From the NCBI GenBank assembly GCA_001780285.1, contig MFGN01000005.1, forward strand, positions 10,200 to 74,199: DNA of 64,000 nt, written 5' to 3'. A program made the position numbers and the translations under genes. The notes beneath the pieces are model-generated. The model was given only the letters and a program-made list of their open reading frames with translations. It had not been told where the DNA came from and ran no database searches. Within the stretch, counting starts at the first letter, position 1, and the number at the start of each line of letters is the position of its first letter. Source of the stretch: Candidatus Falkowbacteria bacterium RIFOXYD12_FULL_34_57 (GTDB lineage: Bacteria > Patescibacteriota > Patescibacteriia > Patescibacteriales > UBA12075). Below, in pieces: positions 2,274 through 38,610 of the stretch.

Positions 2274-3287
2274 ATGATAGAAAAATTTAAAAATTTACAA
2301 GAAAGTTTTTTAAAAGAAGAAATTGGAAAGGCGATTATGCGAGTAATTGTTCTTTTTGATATATTTAATTATCCGCTTACGGAATTTGAAGTGTGGCAGT
2401 ATTTGTGCGGCAACGGTAATTCATTGTCATTAAATGATGTTAAAAAAGTTTTAGCTGACCGGCAATTTCTGGAAAAATACGGTATCGTGACAAAACAAGG
2501 ATTTTATTATTTATCTCATTTTTTTTCTTATCATCCCGAGGCTTCAATGGAGCCAGGGGCGGAATTAAAGAACCCGGGATCCATCGTTAAGACTCGCATG
2601 GATCGCTATAACCACACTGATCGTAAATTTAAGATTGCCCTTAAGGTGGCTAGGTGGTTCAAGCTCATTCCATGGATCCGCATGATAGCTGTCGGCAATA
2701 TTATTGGCGCGAATAATCTTGATGATAATAGCGATATTGACCTATTTGTTATTACTGAACGGAACCGAGCTTGGATTACGCGTCTTTTTTGTGCCGGATT
2801 AATGGCGGTATTCAATATGAGACCGAAGCCGGAGAAAAAAAGAGATAAGATTTGCCTGAGTTTTTTTATTGATGAAAATAATATGAATTTAGAAAAAATT
2901 AAAATTTCAAGAAAAGATATTTATTTTGATTATTGGCTTTTGGGACTCAAGCCGATTTATGATGCGGGCAGCGTTTATGCAAAATTTATTGAAGAAAATA
3001 GCTGGATCAGGAAAATTTTTTCAAACTGGATACCCCACAAATCAGTATATTTTCGAGATGCCGGCAAGCCTTTTCCGCGCGTTTATCACGATATTATAGA
3101 TTTGTTTTTCGGTGGGCTTAGTTACAAATTAAAGAATTGGCAAATAAGAATGATGCCGGATATTTTGCGCCAGATGATGAATCGGGATAAGCGAGTGATC
3201 GTGCAGGACGGGATATTGAAATTACATGTGAATGATAGACGAGAAAAGATATTTAATAAATATTTAAAATTGATAGAGAGTCTTTAA
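2274..3287 (+). CDS. Hypothetical protein with nucleotidyltransferase-like G-x-G...SDIDLFV motif
   Basis: Long ORF. AVGNIIGANNLDDNSDIDLFVITE resembles the G[SN]xxG-x(7-9)-SDxDLxV motif of the minimal nucleotidyltransferase fold. ATG at 2274 preferred over the upstream alternative start. Confidence 0.55.
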   Translation: MIEKFKNLQESFLKEEIGKAIMRVIVLFDIFNYPLTEFEVWQYLCGNGNSLSLNDVKKVLADRQFLEKYGIVTKQGFYYLSHFFSYHPEASMEPGAELKNPGSIVKTRMDRYNHTDRKFKIALKVARWFKLIPWIRMIAVGNIIGANNLDDNSDIDLFVITERNRAWITRLFCAGLMAVFNMRPKPEKKRDKICLSFFIDENNMNLEKIKISRKDIYFDYWLLGLKPIYDAGSVYAKFIEENSWIRKIFSNWIPHKSVYFRDAGKPFPRVYHDIIDLFFGGLSYKLKNWQIRMMPDILRQMMNRDKRVIVQDGILKLHVNDRREKIFNKYLKLIESL

Positions 3288-4853: not shown

Positions 4854-4887
4854 GGTTTTTTGTGGATAAATTCATTTTTATTTTGAG

Positions 4888-4912
4888 CGCCAATAGTTAA
4901 ATTGGCGTTTTT
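4888..4912 (+). terminator. Rho-independent terminator
   Basis: CGCCAAT-agttaa-ATTGGCG followed by TTTTT, 35 nt after the stop at 4853. Confidence 0.65.
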
Positions 4913-4981
4913 AATTTTTTATTAAAAGAATTATTTATTTTTTTTATACTAATCTTAACTAATTTTTCAAAAAAATAATTC

Positions 4982-5054: not shown

Positions 5055-5184
5055 TACATTAATGATGTTGATAAATAAAATAATACTAAAATAAAAGAAA
5101 AGCTTCTTGTTGATGATATGAATTATCTTATAAAAAATTTAAATATACAAATTAATAATTTTTTGATAAAAACAAGCCAAAAAG

Positions 5185-5213
5185 CCGTTTATTTTTTGTA
5201 AACGGTTTTTTTT
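5185..5213 (+). terminator. Terminator-like hairpin in the leader upstream of the 5366 gene
   Basis: CCGTTTA-ttttttg-TAAACGG followed by eight T. No convincing ORF upstream of it. Confidence 0.5.
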
Positions 5214-5365
5214 ATTACTCTTAGTTATTCCCATATTCTGTTCGCAATGTTATGGTTTTTGCGGGTAGAACGCGGGAATCTTAATGAGTGTAAATCGGGT
5301 ATTGGATTTCCGAATTTTTTTCTATACAAAAAAGATAAGGAGATAAAAAATGAAAAATTAATTAG

Positions 5366-11483: not shown

Positions 11484-14400
11484 ATGAAAGATAAACAAAA
11501 AAAATCACTAAAAATGAAAAGAATATGGTGGACAATTAAATTTGTTTTACCAATGTTTTTGTTAACATTGGTGTTTTTTAGTATAAACGGAGAAAAAGCA
11601 ATTTCGGCTCCGGCTAGGTGGGAAGATGATTTTAACGATTGTCCGCAGCAGGATTTAACTAATTTTCCGGGTCAGAATTGTTTGGCGGGTCAAGGTATTT
11701 GCGGCGTGGACACAACCGGAGTGGATTTAGCTCAATGTTATTCTAAAGCGTCCATGAATTACCCGACCGCATCTACTACTTCCAGCACGGTTTATGCTTC
11801 AGGCGAAGATGGCGGATATGTTGTCAACTGTTATGTAGATATGGATGCCACTGCTCCATATTGCGATAATTCCGGCACTTGGTGGTGTAATAGGGATGCT
11901 ACTTGTAATGCTCAAAATAGAGAAACAGAGTGTATTGGAGGAGGAACAGCTTTTTCCTGTGAAGATTGTTATTCGGGTTATTATGACTGTACCGGGGATG
12001 CAACTTGCGAAATTCGAAGCGGAGTAACAGCTTGTCCTGATGCGCACGGGACTTATAATACTACTTGTGGATGTAATTGCAGCGCTTATTGGTATAATTG
12101 CGATGGCGATGCGACTACTTGTGAATGGGGCGGTACCAATGTGGATAATGAAAATTACCGGTTTACTTCTGCTTGCGCGACTAGTTCTTTCGAGTGCTTG
12201 CCCGGTTATGATGATTGTAATGCTGATTTAAACGAAGCAAATATTAATGCCGACACTACCGATGGTTGTGAAATTGATGAATGGGATACAAATTTCGGCG
12301 CTGCCGGCTTGAACAATAGATATAATGATAGTTGTACAGTAATTTGTGATGCTAATTATTACGATTGCGATGGTTTTGGCGCTACTACCACCAACGGCTG
12401 TGAAGTGCAGAATGCTGCTAGTTGTACTGTCGGGCAATTATCCGGTACCTGGGACGGTCCGAATTGTAATTGTGTCGTGCCAACCAGTTACTTTGAAACC
12501 GGTGTAATGGCTGAGTTTGCGACTACCAGCCCGCTTCTTTGGGGTTATCAATACGGAACAGGACCATTAATGCAGTTTACCAGTTGGGGTGCCAGTTCTA
12601 CTGGTGGAATATTTTATGTAGGCAATGATGGTAAAGTCGGTATTGGCACTAGTTCTCCGGGTTCAATGCTAACCGTTGGTATGGATAGCGGCAATCAATT
12701 TTTAGTTAATTCAACAGGGGTGGTAACTGCCGGTACATGGAATGGCAGTATTATTGATGTGGCATACGGCGGAACCGGAACTTCTACTTTTGAAGCTAAT
12801 TCTTTGCTTTTTGCTTCTTCAGATAATAATATTTCAGAAGTTTTAATTGGTTTGGAGGGATATTCTTTAGCGGTTGTCGGCGGAAAACCAACTTGGGTAG
12901 CGTCTTCTACGGGAGCTGCACATCCGTTACTTTCTGTATCCCATGCTGATACTTCAGAAGAAGCGGTTTTAAGGGGAGCATTGATAGTGGGTCGGCAAAA
13001 TGCCAGTCTGGAATGGGCAAGGCTCACTCTTGGATCTAATGGATATATTCTGTATTCAGACGGAACAGATGCTATCTGGCAGTCATTTGAAAATCTTTGG
13101 GATATAAATATGCTGGCTACAACCAGTATGCCGCATATTACCGATTTAGGAGGGCTTGCTACTGTGGGCACGATTACATCCGGAATTTGGAACGGCAGCA
13201 CAATTGATGTAGCGCACGGCGGCACAGGACTTACCTCTGTTTCCGGCGGATATTTACTTGTGGGCAATAGTGCATCTGCGCTTCAGGCAACTTCCAGTAT
13301 ATTTGTGGCTGATTCGGGGTTCGTCGGAATCGGTACGACTACCCCGCAATATAATACGGTAATTATTGGTACCACTAGTGTGGATACTATTTGTTTAGGT
13401 GGATCATGTATTGCAGATTGGGGCCAGTCCGGCGCTATAGATGGGTCAGGATCAACCAACTATGTTACATATTGGCAGGATGGTAATACTTTAACTTCCG
13501 AAGCTCAGCTTGCAAATACTCGCGGTGGTACAGGTCAGAATTCATCCGGCTGGACGGGAATAGCCGCCATCAACGGCGGCACCTGGAGCGCTTCCACCTC
13601 CATCCAGAATGTCTATATTGCCGACGACCTCACGGTAACCGGAGGAGTAATCGGATCAAATAATATCTCCGGAACATTAACCACCACCAATACATTGACC
13701 ATCGGAGACGACGGGGATAATATCATTATTTCAGCTTCCAACTGGGACGTGAACGCTTCCGGGCAGATTACGGCGGGAACAGACGAGACCATCAACGGCA
13801 TCGATATCAGCGGCGGCGTGATCAGCGACGTTACCGGGCTGACGGTCAACGGCAACATCATCGTATCCGGATTCGTGGACGGCGTGGATATTTCAGCCGC
13901 TTCGTCAACCTGGGACGCAAAACAAGACGCGATTACCGGAGCGGCGACAACAGTGCTCACGTCGGATTTGACGGCGGATCGGGCGTTGATCTCCAACGGA
14001 TCGGGCAAGATCGCGGTATCCGGAACAATATCATCCACCGAACTGGGATATCTGGACAATGTCTCATCAAGCATCCAGACGCAGTTGAACAGTAAGTGGG
14101 ATGAGCTTTCCGACATGGCGCTGACCCAGGGGTATATTTTCGTGGGTGATTCAAATGATGATCCAAAAGCCACTTCATCCATATTTATTACATCAATCGG
14201 CAATGTCGGCATCGGCTCAACTTCCCCGATGTATGATTTCGTAGTTGTCGGCACCTCCAGCGCCGATACTATCTGCCTGGACGGATCCTGCATTTCCAAT
14301 TGGGGCGAATCCGGCGCTATCAGCGGATCCGGAAATACCGGCTATGCCGCATATTGGTCGAACGCAACTACGCTGGCCGGCGAACAATATCTGGCGACAA

Positions 14401-17400
14401 GCAGGGGCGGCACCAATCAGAATTCATCCGGCTGGAACGGCGTTGTAAATGTCGTAGGCGGTACATGGTCAACCATAACAGGAACAGCTAATAACATTAC
14501 CTATTGGTCTGATGCCAATACCATCAAAGCCACAACCAGCATATATTTGGCTGATTCAAGTTTTGTCGGCATCGGCACCAGCTCGCCTATCAACCAGCTG
14601 GATGTCAGAGGCAATTTAGGAGTGCTCAATCAGAACGAACTCAGATTCTATGAGCAGGAAGGCAGCGGGCACAATTATGTCGCTTTCAAAGCGAGCACCA
14701 CATTAGGATCTAATTTTACATGGATACTTCCGACTACTGCCGGAGCGGACGGGGAGGCATTGATGATGGGATCTAACAATAAATTAGAATGGGGTACTCC
14801 TGTTGGTGCCGGAACCAACGAATCAAGCACGGCCGGATATATCACGTATTACAAAACAGGCGGAACTACCGTATCGGGCACCTCCACTATATTTATCGCG
14901 CCTAATGGCTATGTGGGCATCGGATCAGGAACTCCGAATAATTTGTTATCAATAGGTGATAATATAAACATCAATGCGGCCGGTACGATTACCGGCGGCA
15001 CCTGGCAGGGCGCTCCTGTCGGATTAACCTACGGCGGACTTGGAGGCAACTTCAACAGTTCTACCGGATATCTTTATGTTGCCGGCGGTACAACTATAGC
15101 TACATCTACCATTTATATCGGTAATACCGACTTGAATGCCGGCACCGGACTTACATTGTCCGGCAATACCATAAATCTGGATGAATTCACTATGGGCACC
15201 ACCGATACCGACGCGACTTTGGGCTCCATTTTCTTTGCCGGAACTGGAGGCGCGATGCAGCAGGACAACGCCAATCTGTTCTGGGATGATACGAATAACC
15301 GATTGGGAATCGGTTCTTCTTCACCGCAGCAAACATTAACAATTCAGGGTGTAGTCGGGCAGGGTATATTGAATATCGCCTCTTCGACAGGTGAATCTAT
15401 ATTTTTTGTTAATGAATATGATAATATCGGTATTGGTACTATTAGCCCTAGTGAAAAATTGGTGTTAAATAACGGTAATTTTTTACAAACCGAAGGAACT
15501 CCTATTAAATTGGGCGGTGTAAATTTAGGTGATGATGGTAGGGGGTTGTGGATAAAGGATAATTATGCTTATGTGGTTTCTGCTAATTATTTAAGTGTGG
15601 TCGATATTACTAATCCAAGTCATCCGATCTTTATAGCTAGCACCACTATCGGAACCGGAGTTAGTGCTTATGGTATTAGAATATCTGGTACTTATGCTTA
15701 TGTAGTTGGTGGTTCAGCTTCAGATGATGATGTTCATATTTTTGATATATCAGATCCTTATAACCCTAGTGATGTGGGTGGAATTGAGCTTGGTGCTACA
15801 AATGTCGGTGGTATTTATATTTCTGGTAAGTATTTGTATCTTGGTTCGCTTAAAACAGGAGGTTTTGAAATATACGATATATCAGATCCGTTAAACGCAG
15901 TAAGACTTGGAGGTACTTCGGTAACCGCAAATGATGCTATCAAATCTATCTGGGTAGTCAATAACAAAGCTTATGTAGTTTCTAATTCCAATTCTTATAA
16001 TTTAGAGGTATTTAATGTTTCTGACCCAACTAATCCAACTTTATTAGATGGGTTAAATACTAGTAGTGGTAATGGAGCTGATATATATGTTTCTGGTCGG
16101 TATGCTTATTTTGGTACAGAAAGTACTGGAAATGATTTTCATATTATTGATATTTCGAGTTCAACTAACATGACTGTGGTTAGTGAGTTAAATACCACCG
16201 GATCAATCAGGGGAATATGGGTGGCCGGTAATTATGCTTATACATCGTTATCAACCGGAGGTAATAAGGTTGAAATATTTGATATAGCAAGTTCAACCAA
16301 TCCATCCAGTATTGGTTCACTTGCTACAGCTGATTATGCCTGGGATATTGTTGTTAATGGTAAATATGCTTATGTTGTTTCAGGACCTATTGGAGATGAT
16401 TTAGAAATATTTGATATTACAGGCATCAGCGCTCCGGCTGCTAACATTGGTAATATTGCTACTAATTATATTAATGTTTCAGAAAATGCCTATATTGATA
16501 ATAATCTTTATATTGGTAATGGTCTTAATGTTGGTGTGGGTGGTATAAAATCCGATGGTAGTTTTTCAGCTTATGGCGACGGTTACTTTGGCGGCAACTT
16601 AACAGTTGGTACAACTACTTTTGGCGCAATGCTTACTGTCGGGGCTACCAGCTCCAGTCAATTTTTAGTTGACAGCAATGGTCGTATTACAGACGGTACC
16701 TGGCAGGGCGACGCAGTTGGTCTTACCTATGGCGGATTGGGCGGGAATTTCAATTCCGCAACCGGTTTCTTCTACGTCTCCGGCGGAGTGGTTGTGGCTT
16801 CATCTACCATTTATATCGGTAATACCGACTTGAATGCCGGCACCGGACTTACATTGTCCGGCAATACCATAAATCTGGATGAATTCACCATGGGCACGAC
16901 CGATACCGACGCGACTTTGGGCTCCATCTTCTTTGCCGGAACTGGAGGCGCGATGCAGCAGGACAACGCCAATCTGTTCTGGGATGATACGAACAACCGA
17001 TTGGGAATCGGCACTACTACTCCTTTTTATACTTTAACGGTTGAAGGCACAGTCGGAAATGGTATTTTGAATATTGCCAGTTCATCCGGCAACTCTTATG
17101 TGCAGATAGATAAAAATGGTTTAACTACTTTTACCGGTGGGGTTATTAATCCTCGTCGAGTTGGATATATACAGTCTTCTAATATTGATAATGCTAATGG
17201 TATTTATGTAGTTAAAGATTATGCTTATGTTAGTGGTAAGAGTGGCATTTCAATATTTAACGTAGCCTCATCGTCAAATCCAATATTTATAGCTTCTACT
17301 TCTCAAACATGGTCTACAATATCTTCACCGCGCAAACCTGTTGTGGTTGGTAATTATGCTTATTTGCCTAGTGACGGAGTAACCACCGGTGCGGTTTCTA

Positions 17401-20400
17401 TATTTGAAGTTTCAAATCCGGCTGCGCCAATGCTTGTGGGAAGATATCCTGATTATGTTACGGGAGCTACCAGTATGATAGCTGGCGCAAAAGGTATTGC
17501 TATTTCCGGAAAATATCTTTATGTGGTTGCTGCCGGTCGCGATACTTTTGCCGCTCTTGATATCTCAGATCCTTCAGATCCCAAAATGATATCAGAATAT
17601 AGAACCAATATAGGCGATCCACAGAATGTAATAGTGGATGGAAGCCATGCTTATATTGCTAATTGTAATGCTAACGCGCTTACTATTATGGATATTTCTG
17701 ATCCATTCAATTTAGTTCGTGATGCGCATCTTGTTGATGCTACCAGGCTCGATTGTCTTAATGGAATTGATAAAAAAGGAAATTATATTTATGGATCAGT
17801 TTGGGATACCGGAAGATTTACGGTAATAGACGTATCAAATCCTAAAAATCCATATATAGCCACATCCACAACTGGTCCTACGGGAACAGAGTTTACAAAC
17901 GGAAATGATGTAGTGGTTGAAGGAGATTATGCATATGTAATAGCTTCTAATAAAATAGTAATTATGAATATTAAAGATCCGATTAATCCACGATATATAA
18001 CTGAGATTGGCATTGTTTCAGCAGAAATATTTTTGAGCGGACGTTATCTTTATGCCGTTAGCGGTTCTGATGATTCATTATCGATTTATGATATTGGAGC
18101 ATTAGAAGTGAGTAATATGTATGCAGGAACAATAAATGTTGATACTCTTCATGTGGCTAGTGATGCGATTATCAACACAGATCTTTATGTAATGGGCGGT
18201 CTCAATCTTGGTGAAAATGGTTTATTGTCTCAGGGAGATAGCGCTTTTATTAAACTTGCCACATCAAGTGATACTAATAGTCCGGTTCTTTCCGCAAATA
18301 TTATCGATCTTAATTCTTCCAGTATTTCAAATATATTTAAAATTACTCATATGAGCAATTCGGTTGCTGAAAATGGAATTGGATCGGGATTATTATTTGA
18401 AAGTGAATTTATTAATGCTCACGGTACAGCAACATCAAGCGCCACATCTACTGCTCAAATCGCCTCTTTATTAATAGATGCTTCATATGCTTCACCGGCA
18501 TCAGCGCTTACTTTTTCTACTAAAAATAATTCATCAAATCTTACTGAATGGATGCGTTTAAATGAAAATGGTTATTTGGGAATCGGCACTACAACACCAG
18601 ATGCTAAATTGACGGTTTGGGGCGCTTCTAATGGGAATAATGCTTTAGTAAATTATTATAATTCAGATGCAAGCAATTTATTTACAATTTTAGAAAATGG
18701 CAATGTCGGCATCGGCTCATCTACCCCAAACAGCCTGCTTTCAATTGGCGATAATATTAATATCAATGCCTCAGGCGTAATTACCGGCGGCACCTGGCAG
18801 GGCGCTCCTGTCGGATTAACCTATGGCGGACTTGGAGGCAACTTCAACAGTTCTACCGGATATCTTTATGTTGCCGGCGGTACAACTATAGCTACATCTA
18901 CCATTTATATCGGTAATACCGACTTGAATGCCGGCACCGGACTTACATTGTCCGGCAATACCATAAATCTGGATGAATTCACTATGGGCACCACCGATAC
19001 CGACGCGACTTTGGGCTCCATTTTCTTTGCCGGAACTGGAGGCGCGATGCAGCAGGACAACGCCAATCTGTTCTGGGATGATACGAATAACAGGCTTGGA
19101 ATAGGGACATCTACCCCCGCTTATCAATTTACCTTATTTAATGATGATTTGAATGATTATTTAGCTTATATTTATAATGCTTCTTCTACGGCCAGCTTGG
19201 GCGGAGGTTTAAAGATTCGCGTTGATGGTGACGGTGAGATTTTGAATTTAAATCACAATGGATCTGATATGGTAACCGTGACCGGTGCGCAGACTACTTT
19301 TAATAATCCGGTTAACTTTACCTCTATCGGAGATGTTACACTCGCTTACGACCTCATTATGGCCAATGCTTCTGCCGGAAATATTACCTTTGATGGACCG
19401 GGTTATATTAATACTCAATCAGCTTGGCAAGATTTAGATTTAACTTTAAGCGCTGCTAACTTAGGTTATATCATTCTGGATGATCAAACGACTTTAACCG
19501 GCACCTCAACTATTGCTGATACTTTGTATATTAACGCTTATAATGACCGCGTAGGTATCGGCACTTCTTCTCCCATGGCAAAATTTGCGGTAACGGGAGA
19601 CGCTTATATTACCGGTACTACTACTGTAGGTTCTTTGTTTATTGGTGCTACAGAAATTCACCCCGAATGGGATAATGTGATTATTGTTGACGGCACAACC
19701 TACGCGCAAAACAGTACCGGCATCCAAGCCGCTATCAACGCCCTTCCTGCCGGAGGCGGTAAAGTATTTTTACCGGCCGGTACTTACAATATTACTGCCA
19801 CTACCACCATTCCAAGTAATGTTTGGATTGAAGGTGCGGGGGCTTCTTCTACGATTTTAAGACTGGCCAATAATGCTAATTCAACAATTTTCATAAATGC
19901 TGATACTACTAACGGTAATGAATATATTAAGATTTCTAATTTATTTATTGAGGGCAATAAAAACAACAACAGCTTCGGTCATGGATCATATTTTGCCTCA
20001 AGTAGCTATATTACTATTGAGAATGTCACATATAATGATATTGATAATTCTTCCTTGTATTTTATTAATTCTAGTAACAATATACTTAAAGAAATTCGAG
20101 TAATAAATTCTGATAATTATGCGTTAGTGTTCAATAATTCTTCCTATAACTCAGTGCTAGAATCTTACTTTAATGATAATGATAGTTATGCTGTTTTTCT
20201 TACCAATGATTCTATTTACAATTTAATCAGCGATAGTAATTTTATAGATAATAGCCGTCATATTGTACCTCTAACTGGTGATAATTATTACAATACCGTT
20301 ACCGGTAATTACTTCACTGGTGCTAGCAACGGAGGCTTCGACGGTGATTGGGGTTATTCAGTAATTACGAATAACAGATTTATTGAAAATTATCGTTGGG

Positions 20401-23400
20401 CCATTTATTCATCATGGTTCCAACACAATATTGTCGACGGTAACATATTCTTGAATAATGGCAAGGGTGATGGTACTGCCGGCGGACTTCGTATGCCTGG
20501 TGGAAATAATAATGTAGTATCCAATAATATTTTTAGTGATGATGGCGGTACCGCTCCAGCTATTTATATTGCCGCCTCTTCAGAGGGAAATATTTTGTCA
20601 GGTAATAGATATTTAGGCACCACTAATTTTATAACTGACAATAGTGCAAGTACCAGATATCTTGATTCGAACCGTCTAGCTATTAAAACCAGTAAACAAG
20701 AATCCTTTGACATTCTTAATGTTACCGCTTCAACAACCGGTGCCTTGGTTAGTCTCACTCAACAAAGTACTGGTGACATCATGAATATTTTTGATGGTTC
20801 AACCGAAGTATTCACTATTCTGGACGGCGGGAATGTCGGCATCGGCTCATCTACCCCAAACAGCCTGCTTTCAATTGGCGATAATATTAATATCAATGCC
20901 TCCGGCGTAATTACCGGCGGCACCTGGCAAGGCGCTCCTGTGGGACTTACCTATGGCGGACTCGGAGGCAACTTCAACAGTTCTACCGGCTTCTTCTATG
21001 TATCCGGCGGAGTAGTTGTCGCATCATCCACTATCGCGATTACTTCCACCGATCTGCAGGGCGGCACCGGACTTACATTATCCGGCAATACCATGAATCT
21101 GGACGAGTTTACCATGGGCACGACCGATACCGACGCGACTTTGGGCTCCATCTTCTTTGCCGGAACTGGAGGCGTCATGCAACAAGATAATGCGAAATTT
21201 TTCTGGGATGATACGAATAACCGATTGGGAATCGGCACATCCAGCCCGCAGGCCATGCTTGATATATTCGGTACGAACAACGAGCTTCGATTGTCATACG
21301 ACATGGATACCTATGTCAGCTTGTCCGCTAACTTCAGCGGAAACATCCAGATCAGCGGTTCTAATACCGGCGGTTCGCAGGTGGTTATCGGTTCGGGTCT
21401 GGCCGAGGATACTTCTTTGATTTATGACGGCAATGCTTATGATTATTATCTGGGACTGGATGATACGGATGACATTTTTAAACTTGGACTTGGCCAGACT
21501 GTCGGCACCAATGCTTATCTGGCTATGGATATTAACGGAAATATCGGCATCGGCTCCACCACTCCCTCCAAATTATTATCAATTTACAAGGATTCGCCGG
21601 CCGCCAACCAGGTCTTATTGCAGGTTGGCACCAGCGACGACAATAACAGGTTCTCGGTCGATGAGGACGGGGATGTAAGTCTGGACGGCACTTTAACCGC
21701 TTCCAATATCTCTACTACCACTATTCCGAGTTTGACCATTTCCGGCGGAGGAGCCTTCCCGAGCGCGCCGAATGAAGGCCAGGTTTTTTACAGAACGGAT
21801 CAGGACCAGGTTTATGTCTATACCGGATCAAAATGGCAGGCGGACAGGACTACGGCTTCCAAGATAGTGGCGGCCAATGATTCGCCGAACAAGGAAAAGG
21901 CCGACTATGTCTGCGACGGCACGCATGACGAAGCCGAGATCAATCAGGCTATTGCCGCTGCTTATAACAGCGGAACCGGAGGATTGGTTTATTTGATGGA
22001 GGGTACTTATAATGTCGGTACTTCAACTTATGCGACTTATGCGATTCGCATGGCAACCAGCACTACTTTGATGGGCGCCGGAGATGCGACTGTGATTAAA
22101 CTGCAGAGTAATTTTAACTATGACATTCAAATTATCAGGGGAGATATTTTGCAAAGTAATTTTGTGGTTACTAAATTGGCAATTGACGGCAATAGCGCCA
22201 ATCAAAGCGCTTCAAAAAATCATTACGCTGTTTATTTTGACAATGTTTCCACATCCACTCTGGATAATCTTTATATTCATAACATAAAAGGATTAGCTGT
22301 AGGTTTTGAGAATTATTCGCAATATAATAAATTGCAATATTCCAGGATAGCAGCAATAATTGACGGTTTAACAACTGGTAAAGGTGTTAATTTTCAAACA
22401 GGATCTAATGATAATGAAGTTATAAATAATATTATGGACGGTATTTCTGATACGGGCTTATATATTTATTCTCAAAAAAACAGAATAGTTTCGAATGTTA
22501 TTAGAAATGCATCTTTTTATGGTATATCTCTTGGAATGGGCGGTGAATATAACTATATCGCCTCAAACGATATCCATAATTCCTTAATAGCAATCAGCAT
22601 TAATGGCGATAATTCTTATATATCTCAAAACATTATTTCCTCCAGTTCCCTTGGCATTGATTGTACGGGAGCAAATTGTGAAAATATCAAAGTAACAGAT
22701 AATAATCTTTATGGCAATATAGACGCTATAAGTATTACCGGTTTTTTCCAATCTGTTTTCAGCAATAATAACATATTCAATAATGCGCAATACGGCATTT
22801 ATTCTGACGGAGGGATGGCTCGATATAATATGATTAACGGGAATATTTTCAAAGAAAATGGCGGTGATGGCTCGTATTCCGCCATGTATCTTAACGGCAT
22901 GTCTGATAATATTATTTCCAATAATATATTTTCAGACATAAGCGGCACCGGCGACGCCATTGAGATAATCAGCGGTTCGGATAACAATACTTTTATCGGT
23001 AATAATTACCAGGATCATGCAGGCAAAGTCAGCGACGCCGGTACGGGAAATAAATTTATCGAAAATAATCGTTTGACTGTTGATGCCAATGACACAGATT
23101 ACGGCGGAGCTGTAACCGCTTTGACAGTCACCCAGTCCGGCACCGGAGATTTGTTGAATGTTTTTGACGGCGCTAGCGAAGTATTCACCATTCTGGACGG
23201 CGGGAATGTCGGCATAGGTTCATCCAGCCCGATGTATGATTTAACCGTTGGCAATATCTTGTGGGCAGGTAATAATGGCGGAGGCGGCAATAATAAGGTA
23301 AGAATAAACGATCCGTTTAATTATATCGGCATGAATAACGGCAACGCTACATTCGGGATAATCGGCAATAACGGGGGGGGAGTCCCGATTGTGGACATCC

Positions 23401-26400
23401 GCGCTTATCAAGGTGCGACTCCCCAAAGCGTATTTTATATCAATAGCGATGGTAATATAATGATGGGCACCAGCACTTTAGGCACAGGAATGAATATTGC
23501 CTTGGGAAAGAATATTGGTATCACCGGCGTAGACAGATATTTGAATTTTGTCCCGAATGTTTCAGGATTTACCGATGCAACATCTTCTTACGGCTTCCGC
23601 GATTACGGCGGCAATATGCAGGTCAAGAGCTCCGGCGGGCAATGGGTCAATATCCAGGGCGCGTTTACGGCTGGTACGGGCCTGACTTTGACTGGCAGCA
23701 GTTTGAACTTGGATGAGTTCACCATGGGCACGACCGATACCGACGCGACTTTGGGCTCCATTTTCTTTGCCGGAACTGGAGGCGCGATGCAGCAGGACAA
23801 CGCCAATCTGTTCTGGGATGATACGAATAACCGATTGGGCATCGGCACCACCACTCCGGCAACCGCCCTGACTATTCTTTCAACCGGTTCGCAGCTCAGG
23901 CTTGCTTATGACGCCAGCAATTATGTTGATTTTACAGTCGATGCTAACGGAGCCTTAACCCTGGGCTCGGCCACCACCACCATCGGCACCGGAAATGACG
24001 CTTTATTTATTGATGCTAACGGCAATGTGGGAATCGGCACCTCTACACCAATTGAACAGCTTGAATTAACCGGTAATTTAAGGTTGCAAAATACAGCATC
24101 TACTTCCAATGAATTATCAGGAGTCATTTATCTGGGAGATAAGCCGTTCTTGCACAGATTTGGTACGTATAATGTGTTTGCCGGAGGCGCCGGAAACTTT
24201 ACTTTAACAACAGCGGATTCAAATGCTATATTCGGTTGGGATTCGGGTATTTCCCTGACTACCGGTGATTACAATTCAGTGCTTGGAAATAGCGCGCTCA
24301 GAATGAATACATCGGGAGAGGGCAATGTGGCGGTTGGTATAAATTCACTGAGAGAAAATACTACCGGAGGTAATAATGTGGCTATCGGCAGAGTTGCGCT
24401 TCGAAATAATACCACAGGTTCTTCAAATATTGTTCTTGGATACGAAGCGCTTTACAATAGCGCTACCGGTTCAAGCAATGTAATTATCGGACATTCGGCA
24501 GGTTATAGAAATACTAACGCCGACCAAAACACCATAGTAGGTTATCAGGCCGGATATGGCGTTGCCGGGACTTCTAATGATAATAATACTTTATTCGGTT
24601 ATAGATCCGGTTATGGTCTTTCCACCGGATCAAATAATTTATTATTGGGATATGGTGCCGGAGATAATATTACTACCGGAAGCAATAATATTATTATCGG
24701 CTATGATATTAATGCGCCTCAAGCCGCAGGGTCAAGCCAGCTGGATATCGGAGATTTGATATACGGCAACTTGAGCTCAAAATATTTAGGCATCGGCACG
24801 TCTTCGCCGCTAACAACATTAACAGTACAAGGAACAGCCGGCGCTCCTATTATGAACATCGCCTCGTCTACCGGTGAGTCGCTTTTCTACATCGCAAAAA
24901 ACGGAAATATCGGCTTGGGCGATATCAGTCCGGATTATCAATTTACTATTTTTAATGACAATACCAATGATTATCTGGCTTATATCTACAACGCTTCTTC
25001 TACCGCCAGTTCAGGAGGAGGCTTGGATATCCGCGTGGACGGAGACGGCAATATATTGAATCTGAACCACAACGGCACCGATGTTGTAACCATATCCGGA
25101 GCCAATACCATCTTCAATAATCCTGTAACATTCGGTTCGGCCGGCGATGTGAGCGTCGCTTATGACCTGCTCATGACCAATGATACGGCCGGCAATATCC
25201 TCTTTGACGGCCCGGGATATATCCGCACTGATTCATCTTGGGAAAATCTAAGCTTAACCTTATCGGCTGCCAACCTCGGGGATGTGGTTGTGGATGATGC
25301 CATGATAATTACCGGCACTACCACCATTGACGATGTTTTATATGTAAATACTTTTGATAACGCAGTAGGCATCGGCACCTCCAGTCCGAATGCCATGCTG
25401 GCGATATATGATAGCGCCGCCGGCGTTACCGATAATGTCTTCACTGTCGCTACCGGCACCGGCGGATCAATATTCCGAGTCAATGGCTCGGGCCAGGTTT
25501 ATGCCGACGGCAGCTTCAACGGCGGCGGCGCCGACTATGCCGAGTATTTCTATGCATCCGACAAGGATTTGAAATCCGGAGAAGTGGTTTGCATAGATGT
25601 AACCCGTGAAAATACAGTAAAAAGATGCGACAGAGGTTCGGACAGCAATGTGATGGGAATAGTTTCTACCGATCCTTCTATCGTAGGAAATGCACAAGAA
25701 AGCTATATAAACAATGAAAATTATAAGATTATCGGCATGCTCGGGCAGGTTCCGGCCTGCGTCAGCGCCGAGAACGGCGATATCCGACCCGGAGACTCCC
25801 TGACTTCTGCTGAAAACAATAAAGGATGCGTAATGCGCGCCGAAGCCGGAGATCCGACTGTAGGTGTAGCGCTGGAAGCATTCGCTTCAGAAGATACAAG
25901 CAACAAGATACAAGATACAAACAATAATCAAGCAACAAGCACTAATGACCAAATAAACGTAAATGTAGCAAAAGGTGAAATTAAAGTATTGATTTCCCGC
26001 CGCAATAAATCCTTAACCGTAGAAATGGTGGAATCTGCCATTACTGAGCGTATTGCCAATATGGAGATTGAAGATGAAGTGGCTATCATGCTTGAAAATG
26101 CCATTGAGGATTACAATATCGCTTCAGCCACCAGGGCGGTGGTAGATGAGCAGATTGCGATGCTTGATTCTGTTTTAAGCGTAGAAATGAACAATATTAC
26201 AGGAGAGCTGACAATGATGGCGACAGCTATCGATGATTTGAGCTCGAGAGTAAGCATTATAGAAGGCGATATAGATTCGATTCTCGATTCTCAATCTTCG
26301 ATTTTCAGTAAATTATCGATAATCAATGATCAATTATCAAATATCGGTTCCAGTTCCCATGAAGTACAGCCATTCATGGTAACCGCCGACGGAAACATAA

Positions 26401-27470
26401 AATTAAGGCCTATCTCCGTTGTCATTCCGGATTTCGATTCAGAATCCATGAGCAATGAAGCTGAAAATGCTTCATCTACAGAAGAAAGCGAAACCGCAGA
26501 AGAGCCTGATGTAGCCGTGTTTGACATTGAGACTCTGGAAAATACCGAAATAACAGCATTGGTAGTAAATCAGAAAGGCTCCGGAGACGTGGCTGATTTC
26601 CAGGCTGACGGAGTGTCTATCGTAAATATTGCCGAAACCGGAAAAGTAGCCGTAGTGGGCGAGATGAGCATAGACGGCCGGCTGATGGTCTGTTCCGGTT
26701 CCGGCTGCGGCAGCGCTTTGGATATGGCGGTTGATGAGACCATGGGCGATATGGGAGTGGAAGGCACGGTTGTGGCCGGAGCTTTTGCCGGATATTGCGA
26801 AAACGGATATGTCTGGGTTCCCGGTTCGTCCAAATACGGCACTATGCCTGGTTTCTGCGTGGGCGCTTATGAAGCGCAAATTCCAAATTCCGAATTCCAA
26901 ATTCCGAATTCTAATCCCCATACTTACATTACTCAAGGCGAAGCTTCTTTGGTCTGCCAGGCAGAAGGCGAGGGGTATCATTTAATCAGTGAAAATGAAT
27001 GGCTGACCATTGCTGAAAATATTATCAGAAACAATGAAAATGACATAGATGCCGCAGCCGAAGGATTGCAATTATCTACTTTTGTCATGGCGGGCGACAG
27101 CGAAGCAATTTCGTCGTCAACCGATAATAGCATCGTATTCACTCTGGAAAACGGCAGTCAGATTTATGATTTCGCGGGCGGCGCAGCAGAATGGACGGAT
27201 TATACCATGCCGAGCGCGACATTAATGCAGCCGGCATCGGATGACTGGCAGGAATATTTCGAGATTAACAATTATCAAGGACTCAATATCAATCCTCCGT
27301 ATTATTATACTTCCGAAAACGGCATCGGCCGCATCAAGACCGGCATGGCCAGCTCTACCGACAGCTATCTCAGGGGATTTGTCCGCGGCGCCAATGCCCT
27401 CTATGACCTGGATTTGTCCCATAGCCCGATAGAAGCAGCCGGCAATATCGGTTTCCGCTGCGCGAAGTAA
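11484..27470 (+). CDS. Giant modular surface protein (5328 aa)
   Basis: Single uninterrupted 15,987-nt ORF with an N-terminal signal/TM. Modules in order: four CxxGYYDCxGDxxCE-type Cys repeats; GIGT(S/T)SP fibre repeats; two runs of LVIVD-type repeats (L-x-[IV]-x-D-[IV]-S-x-P); two PbH1-type beta-helix regions; NxxxGxxAL head-like repeats; GGADYAEYF...GIVSTDPSIVGN, resembling the phage tail-spike intramolecular-chaperone/peptidase G2 region; a coiled coil; and a C-terminal FGE/C-type-lectin-like domain ending NIGFRCAK. Confidence 0.85.
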   Translation: MKDKQKKSLKMKRIWWTIKFVLPMFLLTLVFFSINGEKAISAPARWEDDFNDCPQQDLTNFPGQNCLAGQGICGVDTTGVDLAQCYSKASMNYPTASTTSSTVYASGEDGGYVVNCYVDMDATAPYCDNSGTWWCNRDATCNAQNRETECIGGGTAFSCEDCYSGYYDCTGDATCEIRSGVTACPDAHGTYNTTCGCNCSAYWYNCDGDATTCEWGGTNVDNENYRFTSACATSSFECLPGYDDCNADLNEANINADTTDGCEIDEWDTNFGAAGLNNRYNDSCTVICDANYYDCDGFGATTTNGCEVQNAASCTVGQLSGTWDGPNCNCVVPTSYFETGVMAEFATTSPLLWGYQYGTGPLMQFTSWGASSTGGIFYVGNDGKVGIGTSSPGSMLTVGMDSGNQFLVNSTGVVTAGTWNGSIIDVAYGGTGTSTFEANSLLFASSDNNISEVLIGLEGYSLAVVGGKPTWVASSTGAAHPLLSVSHADTSEEAVLRGALIVGRQNASLEWARLTLGSNGYILYSDGTDAIWQSFENLWDINMLATTSMPHITDLGGLATVGTITSGIWNGSTIDVAHGGTGLTSVSGGYLLVGNSASALQATSSIFVADSGFVGIGTTTPQYNTVIIGTTSVDTICLGGSCIADWGQSGAIDGSGSTNYVTYWQDGNTLTSEAQLANTRGGTGQNSSGWTGIAAINGGTWSASTSIQNVYIADDLTVTGGVIGSNNISGTLTTTNTLTIGDDGDNIIISASNWDVNASGQITAGTDETINGIDISGGVISDVTGLTVNGNIIVSGFVDGVDISAASSTWDAKQDAITGAATTVLTSDLTADRALISNGSGKIAVSGTISSTELGYLDNVSSSIQTQLNSKWDELSDMALTQGYIFVGDSNDDPKATSSIFITSIGNVGIGSTSPMYDFVVVGTSSADTICLDGSCISNWGESGAISGSGNTGYAAYWSNATTLAGEQYLATSRGGTNQNSSGWNGVVNVVGGTWSTITGTANNITYWSDANTIKATTSIYLADSSFVGIGTSSPINQLDVRGNLGVLNQNELRFYEQEGSGHNYVAFKASTTLGSNFTWILPTTAGADGEALMMGSNNKLEWGTPVGAGTNESSTAGYITYYKTGGTTVSGTSTIFIAPNGYVGIGSGTPNNLLSIGDNININAAGTITGGTWQGAPVGLTYGGLGGNFNSSTGYLYVAGGTTIATSTIYIGNTDLNAGTGLTLSGNTINLDEFTMGTTDTDATLGSIFFAGTGGAMQQDNANLFWDDTNNRLGIGSSSPQQTLTIQGVVGQGILNIASSTGESIFFVNEYDNIGIGTISPSEKLVLNNGNFLQTEGTPIKLGGVNLGDDGRGLWIKDNYAYVVSANYLSVVDITNPSHPIFIASTTIGTGVSAYGIRISGTYAYVVGGSASDDDVHIFDISDPYNPSDVGGIELGATNVGGIYISGKYLYLGSLKTGGFEIYDISDPLNAVRLGGTSVTANDAIKSIWVVNNKAYVVSNSNSYNLEVFNVSDPTNPTLLDGLNTSSGNGADIYVSGRYAYFGTESTGNDFHIIDISSSTNMTVVSELNTTGSIRGIWVAGNYAYTSLSTGGNKVEIFDIASSTNPSSIGSLATADYAWDIVVNGKYAYVVSGPIGDDLEIFDITGISAPAANIGNIATNYINVSENAYIDNNLYIGNGLNVGVGGIKSDGSFSAYGDGYFGGNLTVGTTTFGAMLTVGATSSSQFLVDSNGRITDGTWQGDAVGLTYGGLGGNFNSATGFFYVSGGVVVASSTIYIGNTDLNAGTGLTLSGNTINLDEFTMGTTDTDATLGSIFFAGTGGAMQQDNANLFWDDTNNRLGIGTTTPFYTLTVEGTVGNGILNIASSSGNSYVQIDKNGLTTFTGGVINPRRVGYIQSSNIDNANGIYVVKDYAYVSGKSGISIFNVASSSNPIFIASTSQTWSTISSPRKPVVVGNYAYLPSDGVTTGAVSIFEVSNPAAPMLVGRYPDYVTGATSMIAGAKGIAISGKYLYVVAAGRDTFAALDISDPSDPKMISEYRTNIGDPQNVIVDGSHAYIANCNANALTIMDISDPFNLVRDAHLVDATRLDCLNGIDKKGNYIYGSVWDTGRFTVIDVSNPKNPYIATSTTGPTGTEFTNGNDVVVEGDYAYVIASNKIVIMNIKDPINPRYITEIGIVSAEIFLSGRYLYAVSGSDDSLSIYDIGALEVSNMYAGTINVDTLHVASDAIINTDLYVMGGLNLGENGLLSQGDSAFIKLATSSDTNSPVLSANIIDLNSSSISNIFKITHMSNSVAENGIGSGLLFESEFINAHGTATSSATSTAQIASLLIDASYASPASALTFSTKNNSSNLTEWMRLNENGYLGIGTTTPDAKLTVWGASNGNNALVNYYNSDASNLFTILENGNVGIGSSTPNSLLSIGDNININASGVITGGTWQGAPVGLTYGGLGGNFNSSTGYLYVAGGTTIATSTIYIGNTDLNAGTGLTLSGNTINLDEFTMGTTDTDATLGSIFFAGTGGAMQQDNANLFWDDTNNRLGIGTSTPAYQFTLFNDDLNDYLAYIYNASSTASLGGGLKIRVDGDGEILNLNHNGSDMVTVTGAQTTFNNPVNFTSIGDVTLAYDLIMANASAGNITFDGPGYINTQSAWQDLDLTLSAANLGYIILDDQTTLTGTSTIADTLYINAYNDRVGIGTSSPMAKFAVTGDAYITGTTTVGSLFIGATEIHPEWDNVIIVDGTTYAQNSTGIQAAINALPAGGGKVFLPAGTYNITATTTIPSNVWIEGAGASSTILRLANNANSTIFINADTTNGNEYIKISNLFIEGNKNNNSFGHGSYFASSSYITIENVTYNDIDNSSLYFINSSNNILKEIRVINSDNYALVFNNSSYNSVLESYFNDNDSYAVFLTNDSIYNLISDSNFIDNSRHIVPLTGDNYYNTVTGNYFTGASNGGFDGDWGYSVITNNRFIENYRWAIYSSWFQHNIVDGNIFLNNGKGDGTAGGLRMPGGNNNVVSNNIFSDDGGTAPAIYIAASSEGNILSGNRYLGTTNFITDNSASTRYLDSNRLAIKTSKQESFDILNVTASTTGALVSLTQQSTGDIMNIFDGSTEVFTILDGGNVGIGSSTPNSLLSIGDNININASGVITGGTWQGAPVGLTYGGLGGNFNSSTGFFYVSGGVVVASSTIAITSTDLQGGTGLTLSGNTMNLDEFTMGTTDTDATLGSIFFAGTGGVMQQDNAKFFWDDTNNRLGIGTSSPQAMLDIFGTNNELRLSYDMDTYVSLSANFSGNIQISGSNTGGSQVVIGSGLAEDTSLIYDGNAYDYYLGLDDTDDIFKLGLGQTVGTNAYLAMDINGNIGIGSTTPSKLLSIYKDSPAANQVLLQVGTSDDNNRFSVDEDGDVSLDGTLTASNISTTTIPSLTISGGGAFPSAPNEGQVFYRTDQDQVYVYTGSKWQADRTTASKIVAANDSPNKEKADYVCDGTHDEAEINQAIAAAYNSGTGGLVYLMEGTYNVGTSTYATYAIRMATSTTLMGAGDATVIKLQSNFNYDIQIIRGDILQSNFVVTKLAIDGNSANQSASKNHYAVYFDNVSTSTLDNLYIHNIKGLAVGFENYSQYNKLQYSRIAAIIDGLTTGKGVNFQTGSNDNEVINNIMDGISDTGLYIYSQKNRIVSNVIRNASFYGISLGMGGEYNYIASNDIHNSLIAISINGDNSYISQNIISSSSLGIDCTGANCENIKVTDNNLYGNIDAISITGFFQSVFSNNNIFNNAQYGIYSDGGMARYNMINGNIFKENGGDGSYSAMYLNGMSDNIISNNIFSDISGTGDAIEIISGSDNNTFIGNNYQDHAGKVSDAGTGNKFIENNRLTVDANDTDYGGAVTALTVTQSGTGDLLNVFDGASEVFTILDGGNVGIGSSSPMYDLTVGNILWAGNNGGGGNNKVRINDPFNYIGMNNGNATFGIIGNNGGGVPIVDIRAYQGATPQSVFYINSDGNIMMGTSTLGTGMNIALGKNIGITGVDRYLNFVPNVSGFTDATSSYGFRDYGGNMQVKSSGGQWVNIQGAFTAGTGLTLTGSSLNLDEFTMGTTDTDATLGSIFFAGTGGAMQQDNANLFWDDTNNRLGIGTTTPATALTILSTGSQLRLAYDASNYVDFTVDANGALTLGSATTTIGTGNDALFIDANGNVGIGTSTPIEQLELTGNLRLQNTASTSNELSGVIYLGDKPFLHRFGTYNVFAGGAGNFTLTTADSNAIFGWDSGISLTTGDYNSVLGNSALRMNTSGEGNVAVGINSLRENTTGGNNVAIGRVALRNNTTGSSNIVLGYEALYNSATGSSNVIIGHSAGYRNTNADQNTIVGYQAGYGVAGTSNDNNTLFGYRSGYGLSTGSNNLLLGYGAGDNITTGSNNIIIGYDINAPQAAGSSQLDIGDLIYGNLSSKYLGIGTSSPLTTLTVQGTAGAPIMNIASSTGESLFYIAKNGNIGLGDISPDYQFTIFNDNTNDYLAYIYNASSTASSGGGLDIRVDGDGNILNLNHNGTDVVTISGANTIFNNPVTFGSAGDVSVAYDLLMTNDTAGNILFDGPGYIRTDSSWENLSLTLSAANLGDVVVDDAMIITGTTTIDDVLYVNTFDNAVGIGTSSPNAMLAIYDSAAGVTDNVFTVATGTGGSIFRVNGSGQVYADGSFNGGGADYAEYFYASDKDLKSGEVVCIDVTRENTVKRCDRGSDSNVMGIVSTDPSIVGNAQESYINNENYKIIGMLGQVPACVSAENGDIRPGDSLTSAENNKGCVMRAEAGDPTVGVALEAFASEDTSNKIQDTNNNQATSTNDQINVNVAKGEIKVLISRRNKSLTVEMVESAITERIANMEIEDEVAIMLENAIEDYNIASATRAVVDEQIAMLDSVLSVEMNNITGELTMMATAIDDLSSRVSIIEGDIDSILDSQSSIFSKLSIINDQLSNIGSSSHEVQPFMVTADGNIKLRPISVVIPDFDSESMSNEAENASSTEESETAEEPDVAVFDIETLENTEITALVVNQKGSGDVADFQADGVSIVNIAETGKVAVVGEMSIDGRLMVCSGSGCGSALDMAVDETMGDMGVEGTVVAGAFAGYCENGYVWVPGSSKYGTMPGFCVGAYEAQIPNSEFQIPNSNPHTYITQGEASLVCQAEGEGYHLISENEWLTIAENIIRNNENDIDAAAEGLQLSTFVMAGDSEAISSSTDNSIVFTLENGSQIYDFAGGAAEWTDYTMPSATLMQPASDDWQEYFEINNYQGLNINPPYYYTSENGIGRIKTGMASSTDSYLRGFVRGANALYDLDLSHSPIEAAGNIGFRCAK
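14988..15313 (+). repeat. Intragenic collar repeat R1 of the giant ORF
   Basis: 14988-15299 equals 18780-19091 (312 nt) with one mismatch. Encodes GGTWQGAPVGLTYGGLGGNFNSSTGYLYVAGG...DEFTMGTTDTDATLGSIFFAGTGGAMQQDNANLFWDDTNNRLGIG. Confidence 0.95.
16801..17011 (+). repeat. Collar repeat R2
   Basis: About 211 nt matching R1 with 4 mismatches by eye. Confidence 0.9.
18702..19091 (+). repeat. Collar repeat R3
   Basis: 3-prime 312 nt match R1. 5-prime 110 nt (18702-18811) match 20832-20941 with 2 mismatches. Confidence 0.95.
20832..21236 (+). repeat. Collar repeat R4 (more diverged in the middle)
   Basis: Shares its 5-prime 110 nt with R3 and its 3-prime part with R1/R2/R5. Confidence 0.85.
23709..23845 (+). 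repeat. Collar repeat R5 (3-prime half only)
   Basis: ttggatgagttcaccatgggcacgaccgataccgacgcgactttgggctcc...gatacgaataaccgattggg is near-identical to the R1/R2 3-prime halves. Confidence 0.9.
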
Positions 27471-37817: not shown

Positions 37818-37848
37818 TTCGATTATTTAATAATTTTATTATTTTTTT

Positions 37849-38190: not shown

Positions 38191-38350
38191 TAAAATAAAC
38201 GGTCAGAATTGTGCTTTTGTATTTTTATGCAAGCACGAGTGAGCCGAAATCAATCCAATGATATGCCGAATTTTGGCAATATCCGGCTGATCGCCGGCTT
38301 TGTGCTTTGGAAAATTCTTGAGTATGAAGAATAAAACGATCATTAAAGCA

Positions 38351-38538: not shown

Positions 38539-38554
38539 CTGGTGCGTTGACATG

Positions 38555-38591: not shown

Positions 38592-38610
38592 TTCAATGTA
38601 AAAATAAAAA

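Follow-up and report, generated by a model that had tools for sequence, protein, structure and literature searches.

Results

What does a gene of 16 kb do for a cell that lives attached to other microbes, and how do stretches inside it stay almost identical while the sequence between them diverges? Patescibacteria have such a lifestyle, and their host-recognition molecules are largely unknown. We analysed 64,000 nt of Candidatus Falkowbacteria bacterium RIFOXYD12_FULL_34_57 (contig MFGN01000005.1; hereafter the window), in which a single open reading frame (ORF) runs on the plus strand from an ATG at 11484 to 27470, encodes 5,328 aa and contains zero internal stops. An earlier annotation of this DNA, made from the sequence alone and called here the sequence-only reading, had described this frame as a series of domain cassettes separated by a near-identical repeat, the collar; the frame is uninterrupted. 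We number the collars C1 to C5 and the cassettes K1 to K5. On balance we think it probable that this giant gene, which is chromosomal and comes from aquifer metagenomes, encodes a phage-derived, trimeric host-attachment fibre on the surface of a Patescibacteria (Candidate Phyla Radiation, CPR) cell, resembling the mosaic adhesive trimer (MAT) proteins of Bdellovibrio and phage tail fibres.

Collars within the giant ORF

Five copies of the second collar half (DEFTMGTTDTDATLGSIFFAGTGG...WDDTNNRLGIG, beginning DEFTMG) were located, at aa 1233, 1799, 2497, 3207 and 4077 (nt 15180, 16878, 18972, 21102 and 23712). The first half (G/DGTWQG...YGGLGGNFNS; GGTWQG) has just four, starting at aa 1171, 1737, 2435 and 3145, so that the fifth collar lacks it and the ORF holds four full copies of about 111 aa and one half. 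The count of five given by the sequence-only reading is thus right for the second half of the repeat only; its collar starts (14988, 16801, 18702, 20832 and 23709) all fall inside collars, in differing registers. No collar copy was found outside the giant ORF within the 64-kb window. C1 and C3 agree at 311 of 312 nt (14988–15299 versus 18780–19091), a value first reported by the sequence-only reading and reproduced exactly upon recomputation. The remaining pairs are 80.6–85.5% identical across a 330-nt core, and the 3' half is 96–97.5% identical among C1, C2, C3 and C5.

Each collar terminates in GIGTxxPxxxL, the capping-loop motif of MAT and phage S74 fibres, and profile searches matched precisely this motif to the crystal-structure chains of Bd2133 (8ond_A, E 2.8e-5) and Bd3182 (8ojn_C, E 8.4e-4). 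Searching PDB sequences with single segments found nothing. The AlphaFold2 (AF2) model of a collar monomer has a predicted local distance difference test score (pLDDT) of 69 and is mostly extended, without a globular fold; its best Foldseek match had an E of 3.4, and the trimeric-shaft look-alikes topping that list are not evidence. The extended monomer model would be compatible with an oligomeric shaft and proves nothing.

To survey the collar family we relied on an exhaustive phmmer search instead of a word-indexed one, which proved insensitive with one collar as query (only 21 short matches). The collar emerges as a widespread domain: at E<=1e-3 the search reached 5,734 cluster representatives, at E<=1e-10 it reached 469, and no model in the copy of Pfam searched covers it. 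Several of the homologues are proteins of 3,600–5,200 aa with 18–29 matched stretches. The WDDTNNRLG core is found in 163 stretches of GTDB representatives, mostly Patescibacteria but also metagenome-assembled genomes (MAGs) of Bdellovibrionales, uncultured Gammaproteobacteria, Bacteroidota and Dependentiae. A further 541 stretches with the collar motif lie in IMG/VR viral contigs, where some ORFs that carry it adjoin a virion structural protein, and one such ORF is itself tail-protein-like and adjoins an endolysin. Neither the collar nor the C-terminal unit described below had a match among 50,697 cultured-phage records.

Cassettes, shaft and C-terminal unit

Two LVIVD regions and two beta-helix regions had been read from the sequence, and Pfam confirms both pairs: the LVIVD (PF08309) and beta-helix (PF13229, PF05048, PF12708) matches exceed their gathering scores, with E values between 7e-21 and 8e-7 for Beta_helix, NosD and Pect-lyase. 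The segments between collars had also been called unrelated to each other, and this did not survive comparison. K1 and K2 share 32% aa identity over 434 aa (E 1e-39), K3 and K4 share 31% over 466 aa (E 2e-34), and a module of 173–180 aa that follows C3 (module A) recurs at 64% aa identity before the Peptidase_G2-type (G2) domain (module A'). Judged from these alignments, K1/K2 and K3/K4 are old paralogue pairs. K3 and K5 match tail-spike and virion structural families in PHROG; in the head-like repeats of K5, the head-repeat region of the earlier description, no Pfam family was matched.

The shaft upstream of C1 contains a diverged duplication with a period of 882 nt (13323–13475 versus 14205–14357, 68.6% identical), and the motif G[IL]G[TS]xxP is present at 19 sites in the giant protein. 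No Pfam family matched the Cys-rich region that precedes this shaft. The third codon positions of the ORF form a strong compositional mosaic: their GC content (GC3) is 0.45–0.77 in shaft and collar segments and 0.14–0.36 in the LVIVD, beta-helix-core and head-repeat cassettes, while first and second positions (GC1 and GC2) are alike in both classes. GC3 was considered as a collar-specific mark of biased conversion and rejected, as every shaft segment has high GC3. The peak, at aa ~720–840, lies outside any collar. The mosaic might reflect either biased gene conversion or parts that differ in origin.

At the C-terminal end, the sequence-only reading had likened the region around GGADYAEYF to the chaperone/peptidase G2 region of phage tail spikes. 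PF11962 matches aa 4647–4737 with 26.6 bits, its gathering score being 25, and the same family is precomputed on many homologues of the C-terminal unit. Foldseek likewise places the domain (pLDDT 75–90) with premature phi29 gp12 and its C-terminal fragment (3suc, E 4.6e-5; 3gqh_A, E 2.1e-4, TMt 0.58), and ADYAEY is nearly invariant in 34 homologues. Three parts of the AF2 model of this end are confident, namely the beta domain, a helix of ~70 residues and the terminal domain. The helical segment gave weak profile matches to the trimeric coiled coils of sigma-1 and gp26, and the terminal domain resembles TaqVP (5vf4, E 5.7e-5) and Mtd (1yu4, E 0.02) by Foldseek. The coiled coil and FGE/C-type-lectin end anticipated from the sequence thus reappear as a modelled helix and a lectin fold, but the FGE-sulfatase family (PF03781) stays below threshold by sequence (15.7 bits versus 23.3).

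About 45 mostly partial Patescibacteria proteins share the C-terminal 689 aa as a single block, at 40–57% identity and ~100% coverage, the nearest named ones being from Falkowbacteria and Parcubacteria. Upstream of this unit the homologues vary and carry FG-GAP, LVIVD, Hint-like or DUF5011 domains. Altogether, the PHROG matches, the capping loops shared with Bd2133 and Bd3182, the phi29 gp12-like fold and the collar ORFs amid phage tail and virion genes support the tail-fibre-like adhesin that had been proposed from the sequence.

A model for the giant protein and its alternatives

We suggest that the N-terminal signal peptide or anchor and the Cys-rich base would fix the fibre to the cell. 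From there a beta-rich shaft would bear the five cassettes, each globular or enzymatic: a pair of LVIVD propellers, a pair of pectate-lyase-like beta-helices and a block of head-like repeats. The collars would act as standard shaft connectors ending in a MAT/S74 capping loop, by which dissimilar cassettes could be threaded onto one fibre. Further along, the phi29-gp12-type (Peptidase_G2) domain would serve as an autochaperone nucleating trimer folding, and the coiled coil followed by the C-type-lectin tip would supply a distal binding site. Such a fibre would probably serve to recognise the surface of a host cell and to keep hold of it, and perhaps also to degrade it locally. The five dispersed collars exchange sequence by intragenic conversion and so remain near-identical while the cassettes diverge, and their homology could also mediate deletion, duplication or exchange of cassettes; this shuffling is a plausible hypothesis. 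Trimerisation, surface display, autocleavage, ligand binding and actual shuffling are the steps that we infer.

Several observations weigh against this fibre model. The PF11962 match is barely above threshold and covers profile positions 10–99 of 228 only. The G2 domain is internal and not C-terminal, with ~490 aa following it. The AF2 models are of monomers only, with mean pLDDT 67–69. The Cys-rich N-terminal region has just 3 homologues in a word-indexed search, none of them named Bdellovibrio, and LVIVD propellers are unusual passengers for a trimeric shaft. Since high GC3 is common to all shaft segments, the compositional signal may in part be due to something other than conversion. Finally, no collar-mediated rearrangement is present in any nucleotide assembly of the region.

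A bolder variant of the model treats the collars as a homologous-recombination 'shufflon', with which a tiny-genome episymbiont would delete, duplicate, reorder or import the binding or enzymatic cassettes of its fibre, the motif in phages and other bacteria being the currency of exchange. The module composition of the fibre would then vary within populations, and the contrast between a GC3-rich shaft and AT3-rich cassettes would be the footprint of frequent conversion. We regard this variant as doubtful.

The internal position of the G2 domain also raises a different possibility, as any cleavage there would detach the lectin tip. The protein might then be a secreted multi-enzyme or lectin 'tool belt', or release a toxin-like tip: autocleavage would free a 645-aa soluble fragment of G2 domain, coiled coil and lectin, and the beta-helices would work as polysaccharide depolymerases. 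The G2-type cleavage motif is conserved, and pectate-lyase-like and tail-spike families are what the beta-helix cassettes resemble, as this explanation would have it. We nonetheless find it unlikely. The depolymerase role is putative, being read from family matches; tip, G2 domain and helix are conserved as a single unit; and in the MAT and phage precedents the fibre is retained and binds through domains at its distal end. Under the attachment-fibre model the internal domain may either be uncleaved, or leave a fragment that stays bound, or carry a tip with another role.

Reproducibility across assemblies

The locus is present in two NCBI MAG contigs of ~207 kb each (GCA_001778205.1, encoding 5,328 aa, and GCA_001778325.1, encoding 5,295 aa), in ENA 'ANAN16' scaffolds, in JGI contigs and in Logan contigs. 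Exact-product look-ups recovered at least eight further nucleotide contigs from several samples (among them ERZ28563756, ERZ28563808 and two similar ones, and contigs of JGI 3300025053, 3300025088 and 3300025107), which carry the window protein from aa 967, 1103 or 1127 through the stop and whose DNA matches that of the window without a single mismatch in the ORF. Across 17504–42498, five loci agree save for 1–3 differences, all outside the ORF. Cassette order and length are the same in all nucleotide assemblies spanning the region. Because the exact sequence is recovered on at least eight further contigs, the order C1-K1-C2-K2-C3-K3-C4-K4-C5-K5 is reproducible, and since collars and order recur in several samples they are not a one-off misassembly. 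The loss, gain or shuffling of cassettes through collars foreseen by the sequence-only reading therefore finds no case among these assemblies.

Two structural outliers were noted. GCA_001778325.1 has an in-frame deletion of 99 nt (33 codons) inside C1, at 15111–15209, with a 4-nt microhomology (TACC); these 99 nt are present in all other assemblies reaching that point. JGI contig Ga0208953_1000692 (3300025081) has the 294-aa N-terminal shaft unit three times, the extra copy being an in-frame insertion of 882 nt upstream of C1, joined at a 23-nt word common to both units of the window (13535–13557 and 14417–14439). The extra unit is either a real unequal-crossover variant or a misjoin at low k, and the deletion and the duplication could alike be real or artefactual. 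Neither is a collar-to-collar event.

Two proteins from a protein-level SRC read assembly of run SRR3989339 (P0022 and P0172) loop from K2 through a collar back to K2 and through a collar to K1. They were considered as cassette-order variants and rejected as repeat-induced loops; no nucleotide contig is on record for them, so they are treated as artefacts. JGI metagenome contigs hold 446 collar-motif relatives, all at most 71% identical; the source population is not among them, and they are therefore uninformative on rearrangement.

The near-identity of the collars, or the order and number of the cassettes, might instead stem from the collapse of a short-read consensus or from misjoins. Assemblies do fail here, as had been expected of such repeats: MEGAHIT-type and JGI contigs stop inside C1 (15151 and 15173), others begin just before it (14382, 14788 and 14860), and the two outliers and the collar loops of P0022 and P0172 can be counted on the same side. 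Copies may also be merged as bubbles at contig level. Against this stand the identical C1–C5 sequences of the at least eight contigs from ENA ANAN16, JGI and NCBI MAGs, a 16-kb frame that stays open in a genome of 33–45% GC, and the fact that the order in the window is the sole linear path through the C1=C3 repeat that uses each segment once. An assembly artefact is thus quite improbable.

Gene conversion among collars

We compared the collars along their length. Identity tracts form a mosaic with sharp boundaries, and the closest partner of a collar changes within it. C3 equals C4 over ~90 nt upstream of the core and, after leaving this tract, equals C1 for ~310 nt (about -180 to +120). C2 is ~70% identical to C1/C3 up to 60 nt before DEFTMG and identical thereafter, and farther downstream C2, C4 and C5 share variants against C1/C3. 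A Sawyer-type permutation on 152 polymorphic sites gave p<=1e-4 in four of the six collar pairs. The codon differences between C1 and C3 comprise 5 synonymous and 0 non-synonymous ones. The cassettes beside the collars have drifted to ~31% aa identity, with no detectable nucleotide similarity between paralogues. Units that were duplicated together have thus diverged everywhere save in the collars, silent sites included, which is the signature of concerted evolution. This indicates that the collars are homogenised by intragenic gene conversion and not by selection alone, and it bears out the ongoing homogenisation that the high DNA identity had suggested.

Purifying selection on a structurally critical connector, acting without gene conversion, is very unlikely to account for these data. 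The WDDTNNRLG core is invariant in very distant proteins, so the collar peptide is under strong constraint, but synonymous sites are identical over 312 nt, the tracts end sharply with a switch of nearest partner, and same-motif collars from other species reach only ~49% nucleotide identity. Among GTDB-representative genomes, nine other multi-collar genes have a within-gene collar identity of 0.75–0.92 against a between-locus mean of 0.49; many other multi-collar genes in the same set show no such rise.

A similar pattern was seen next to the giant gene. Two adjacent LamG-rich giant genes, coding for 1,664 and 1,728 aa, have in common a 571-nt stretch that is 89% identical (27580–28150 versus 32731–33301); its 422-nt core is 98.3% identical, and outside the stretch the two genes are ~65–81% identical. 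This suggests conversion between these paralogues as well.

Genomic context

The genes flanking the locus are cellular (RmuC, Wzy, adenylosuccinate synthase (purA), isochorismatase, an M16 peptidase and a UvrD/AddA-type helicase). No phage genes lie near it, capsid, portal and terminase genes included, and no tRNA genes were found in the window. The giant ORF and its neighbours form a run of large surface proteins of ~32 kb. Coordinates are collected in Table 1.

Table 1. Parts of the giant ORF and nearby genes, with window coordinates
Feature	Position (nt)	Strand	Basis or remark
Giant ORF	11484..27470	+	5,328 aa; stop included in span
Putative signal peptide or signal anchor, aa 1-39	11484..11600	+	Lys/Arg-rich start then hydrophobic helix; read from translation
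Cys-rich N-terminal region, aa ~50-335	11631..12488	+	repeated YYDC..G.ATCE motifs; translation
N-terminal shaft with GIGTxxP and GGTG motifs	12489..14903	+	motif and repeat comparison
Collar C1, core aa 1171-1281 plus ~30 aa of pre-collar common to C3 and C4	14904..15326	+	repeat comparison
Cassette K1, LVIVD beta-propeller 1	15327..16685	+	Pfam LVIVD E 2e-41; TIGR04312 E 9e-27; K2 paralogue
Collar C2, aa 1737-1847	16686..17024	+	repeat comparison
Cassette K2, LVIVD beta-propeller 2 and ~230-aa tail module	17025..18695	+	Pfam; phrog_22523; K1 paralogue
Collar C3, aa 2435-2545	18696..19118	+	repeat comparison
Cassette K3, module A (19121-19567) then right-handed beta-helix 1, aa ~2739-3060	19119..20825	+	Pfam NosD, Pect-lyase; phrog_2234 tail spike
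Collar C4, aa 3145-3255, most diverged full copy	20826..21248	+	repeat comparison
Cassette K4, right-handed beta-helix 2 (aa ~3476-3860) and flanking modules	21249..23703	+	Pfam Beta_helix E 7e-21; K3 paralogue
Collar C5, 3' half only, aa ~4075-4125	23704..23858	+	repeat comparison; phrog_5906
Cassette K5, ~14-residue head-like repeats (aa ~4224-4423) then module A' (24935-25381)	23859..25523	+	phrog_6002, phrog_4636, phrog_23837
Peptidase_G2 / phi29-gp12-like autochaperone domain (predicted), ADYAEY at aa 4683-4688	25524..25994	+	PF11962; Foldseek
Long alpha-helical, coiled-coil-like segment, aa ~4846-4954	26019..26345	+	AF2 helices 207-315 of model
C-type-lectin / FGE-like domain, aa ~5104-5328, ends NIGFRCAK	26793..27467	+	AF2 pLDDT 80-94; Foldseek
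AbiEii toxin	40486-41208		partner ORF upstream, 39837-40496, without family match
Two AAA_14/DUF4143 ATPases	41386-42585, 44431-45552		
Small beta-helix protein	42709-43500		
IS200-like Y1 transposase	47194-47856		

A complete diversity-generating retroelement (DGR) lies at 37626–39850 and 46593–46783, with bAvd (37849–38190), a template repeat (TR, 38351–38541) and a reverse transcriptase. Its targets are the 3' ends of the ORFs at 32631–37817 (variable repeat VR1) and 45549–46784, both of which end in a Fib_succ_major lectin domain, and the differences between TR and VR fall on TR adenines in 10 of 11 and 12 of 13 cases. In one other sample VR1 departs from the window sequence at two positions, both at TR adenines, and one MAG has an N-gap over VR1. 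The reverse transcriptase is split into ORFs 38611–39117 and 39167–39850 by a (GA)14G microsatellite at 39086–39114. With a single GA unit more, or two fewer, the halves would be joined; the tract, whose length is the same in each of the five assemblies compared, may be a slipped-strand switch that turns the retroelement ON or OFF. A mobile-element and defence-like cluster (39837–47856) stands beside the DGR.

The giant ORF was considered as a target of this DGR and rejected. The fold of its lectin tip is that of DGR variable proteins, and Avd, TR and reverse transcriptase lie 10.4–12.4 kb downstream of its stop with two other lectin-ended genes diversified, but hypermutation of the tip is hardly to be expected given that the 3' end (27200–27470) aligns neither to the TR nor to another repeat in the window and is invariant in all assemblies, whereas VR1 varies. 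That the gene is a phage or prophage tail-fibre gene, as phage-type modules throughout the protein might suggest, is most improbable in view of its cellular flanks, the lack of nearby capsid, portal and terminase genes, a contig of >200 kb and a C-terminal unit unmatched in the cultured-phage records.

Other repeats were noted in the window. An FG-GAP repeat protein of 2,106 aa (51839–58159) has 24 Pfam repeat stretches and internal tandem repeats of 64–71% nt identity. Direct repeats of 57 nt link Wzy (4114–4170) and the M16 peptidase (51206–51261) at 96% identity, in genes otherwise unrelated, and a second pair lies inside the UvrD/AddA-type helicase gene (59503–59559 versus 61639–61695, 91%).

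Discussion

Intragenic concerted evolution in adhesins and phage-like fibres in bacteria are both well known. New here are the scale, the dispersed homogenised collars between divergent cassettes, the internal G2 domain with its helix and lectin as a terminal unit, and the link between CPR and MAT fibres. The giant gene ties Patescibacteria to fibres that have been characterised experimentally, those of Bdellovibrio and of phage tails. Homogenised standard connectors between divergent cassettes could explain how fibres diversify in very small genomes. Since genes of the collar type fragment assemblies or make them loop, counts of their diversity are too low.

Comparison with known systems

The closest comparison is with the MAT proteins of Bdellovibrio bacteriovorus (Bd2133 and Bd3182), a superfamily related to phage S74 fibres and involved in prey recognition (PMC10769870, Caulton et al. 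2024). Their capping loop, V-G-G/N-pi-x-x-P-x-x-x-L, belongs to intertwined trimeric beta-helix fibres (PMC10769870). Like the giant protein, MATs are phage-tail-fibre-like surface fibres of cells with variable binding modules, a chaperone-type domain near the C-terminus and, by profile search, the same capping-loop motif (VG[G/N]xxxPxxxL); both belong to lifestyles that depend on contact with other bacteria, and collar-motif genes occur in Bdellovibrionales MAGs too. The giant protein differs in being ~5x longer, in carrying several internal globular cassettes and not merely a variable tip, and, it seems, in its Cys-rich N-terminus, where MATs have a conserved beta-rich N-domain of ~130 aa after the signal peptide. 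It has no S74 (SDxxxK) domain, Peptidase_S74 giving no Pfam match in it, and has instead the internal Peptidase_G2-type domain followed by coiled coil and lectin, which may, to judge from its sequence, be a case of the alternative MAT tip (NS74). Dispersed homogenised collars are not described for MATs. Given the Cys-rich N-terminus, the lack of an S74 domain and a trimer state that is putative, we class the protein as working like a MAT or tail fibre and not as a proven member.

In the pre-neck appendage gp12 of the Bacillus phage phi29 (3suc, 3gqh), a beta-helix passenger is followed by an autochaperone domain of similar fold, with a Pfam match and a conserved motif containing D-x-x-E in common. 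The catalytic role of this motif in the G2 domain is putative. The C-terminal domain of gp12 is an autochaperone cleaved off after folding (PMC3357383). It is thus terminal and discarded, whereas the domain of the giant protein lies 645 aa from the end of a cellular gene product, and its cleavage is putative. The DGR variable proteins TaqVP (5vf4) and Mtd (1yu4) share the fold of the last ~225 aa, and Mtd has the same terminal position on a fibre; the giant gene differs in having no template repeat in the window and no adenine-directed variation in the assemblies compared.

Trimeric autotransporter adhesins (Bartonella BadA and the YadA family) are long and modular, with repeated neck and stalk modules and repeat-driven variation in length. 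The giant protein is likewise a long modular adhesin, as far as its domains suggest, with repeated connectors between head-like modules. Its polarity is opposite, with the putative anchor at the N-terminus; neither the YadA_anchor beta-barrel nor Hep_Hag/HIM heads gave a Pfam match in any segment, and the source organism, unlike the hosts of those adhesins, presumably has no outer membrane.

Finally, recombination between short conserved motifs reportedly swaps adhesin segments in the distal tail-fibre genes of T-even phages, as Tetart et al. are said to have described in 1998. There, as in the giant gene, conserved junctions flank divergent receptor-binding segments and can serve as substrates for recombination. 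The phages exchange such segments between genomes, whereas the giant gene carries five copies of its junction within one gene, mutually homogenised.

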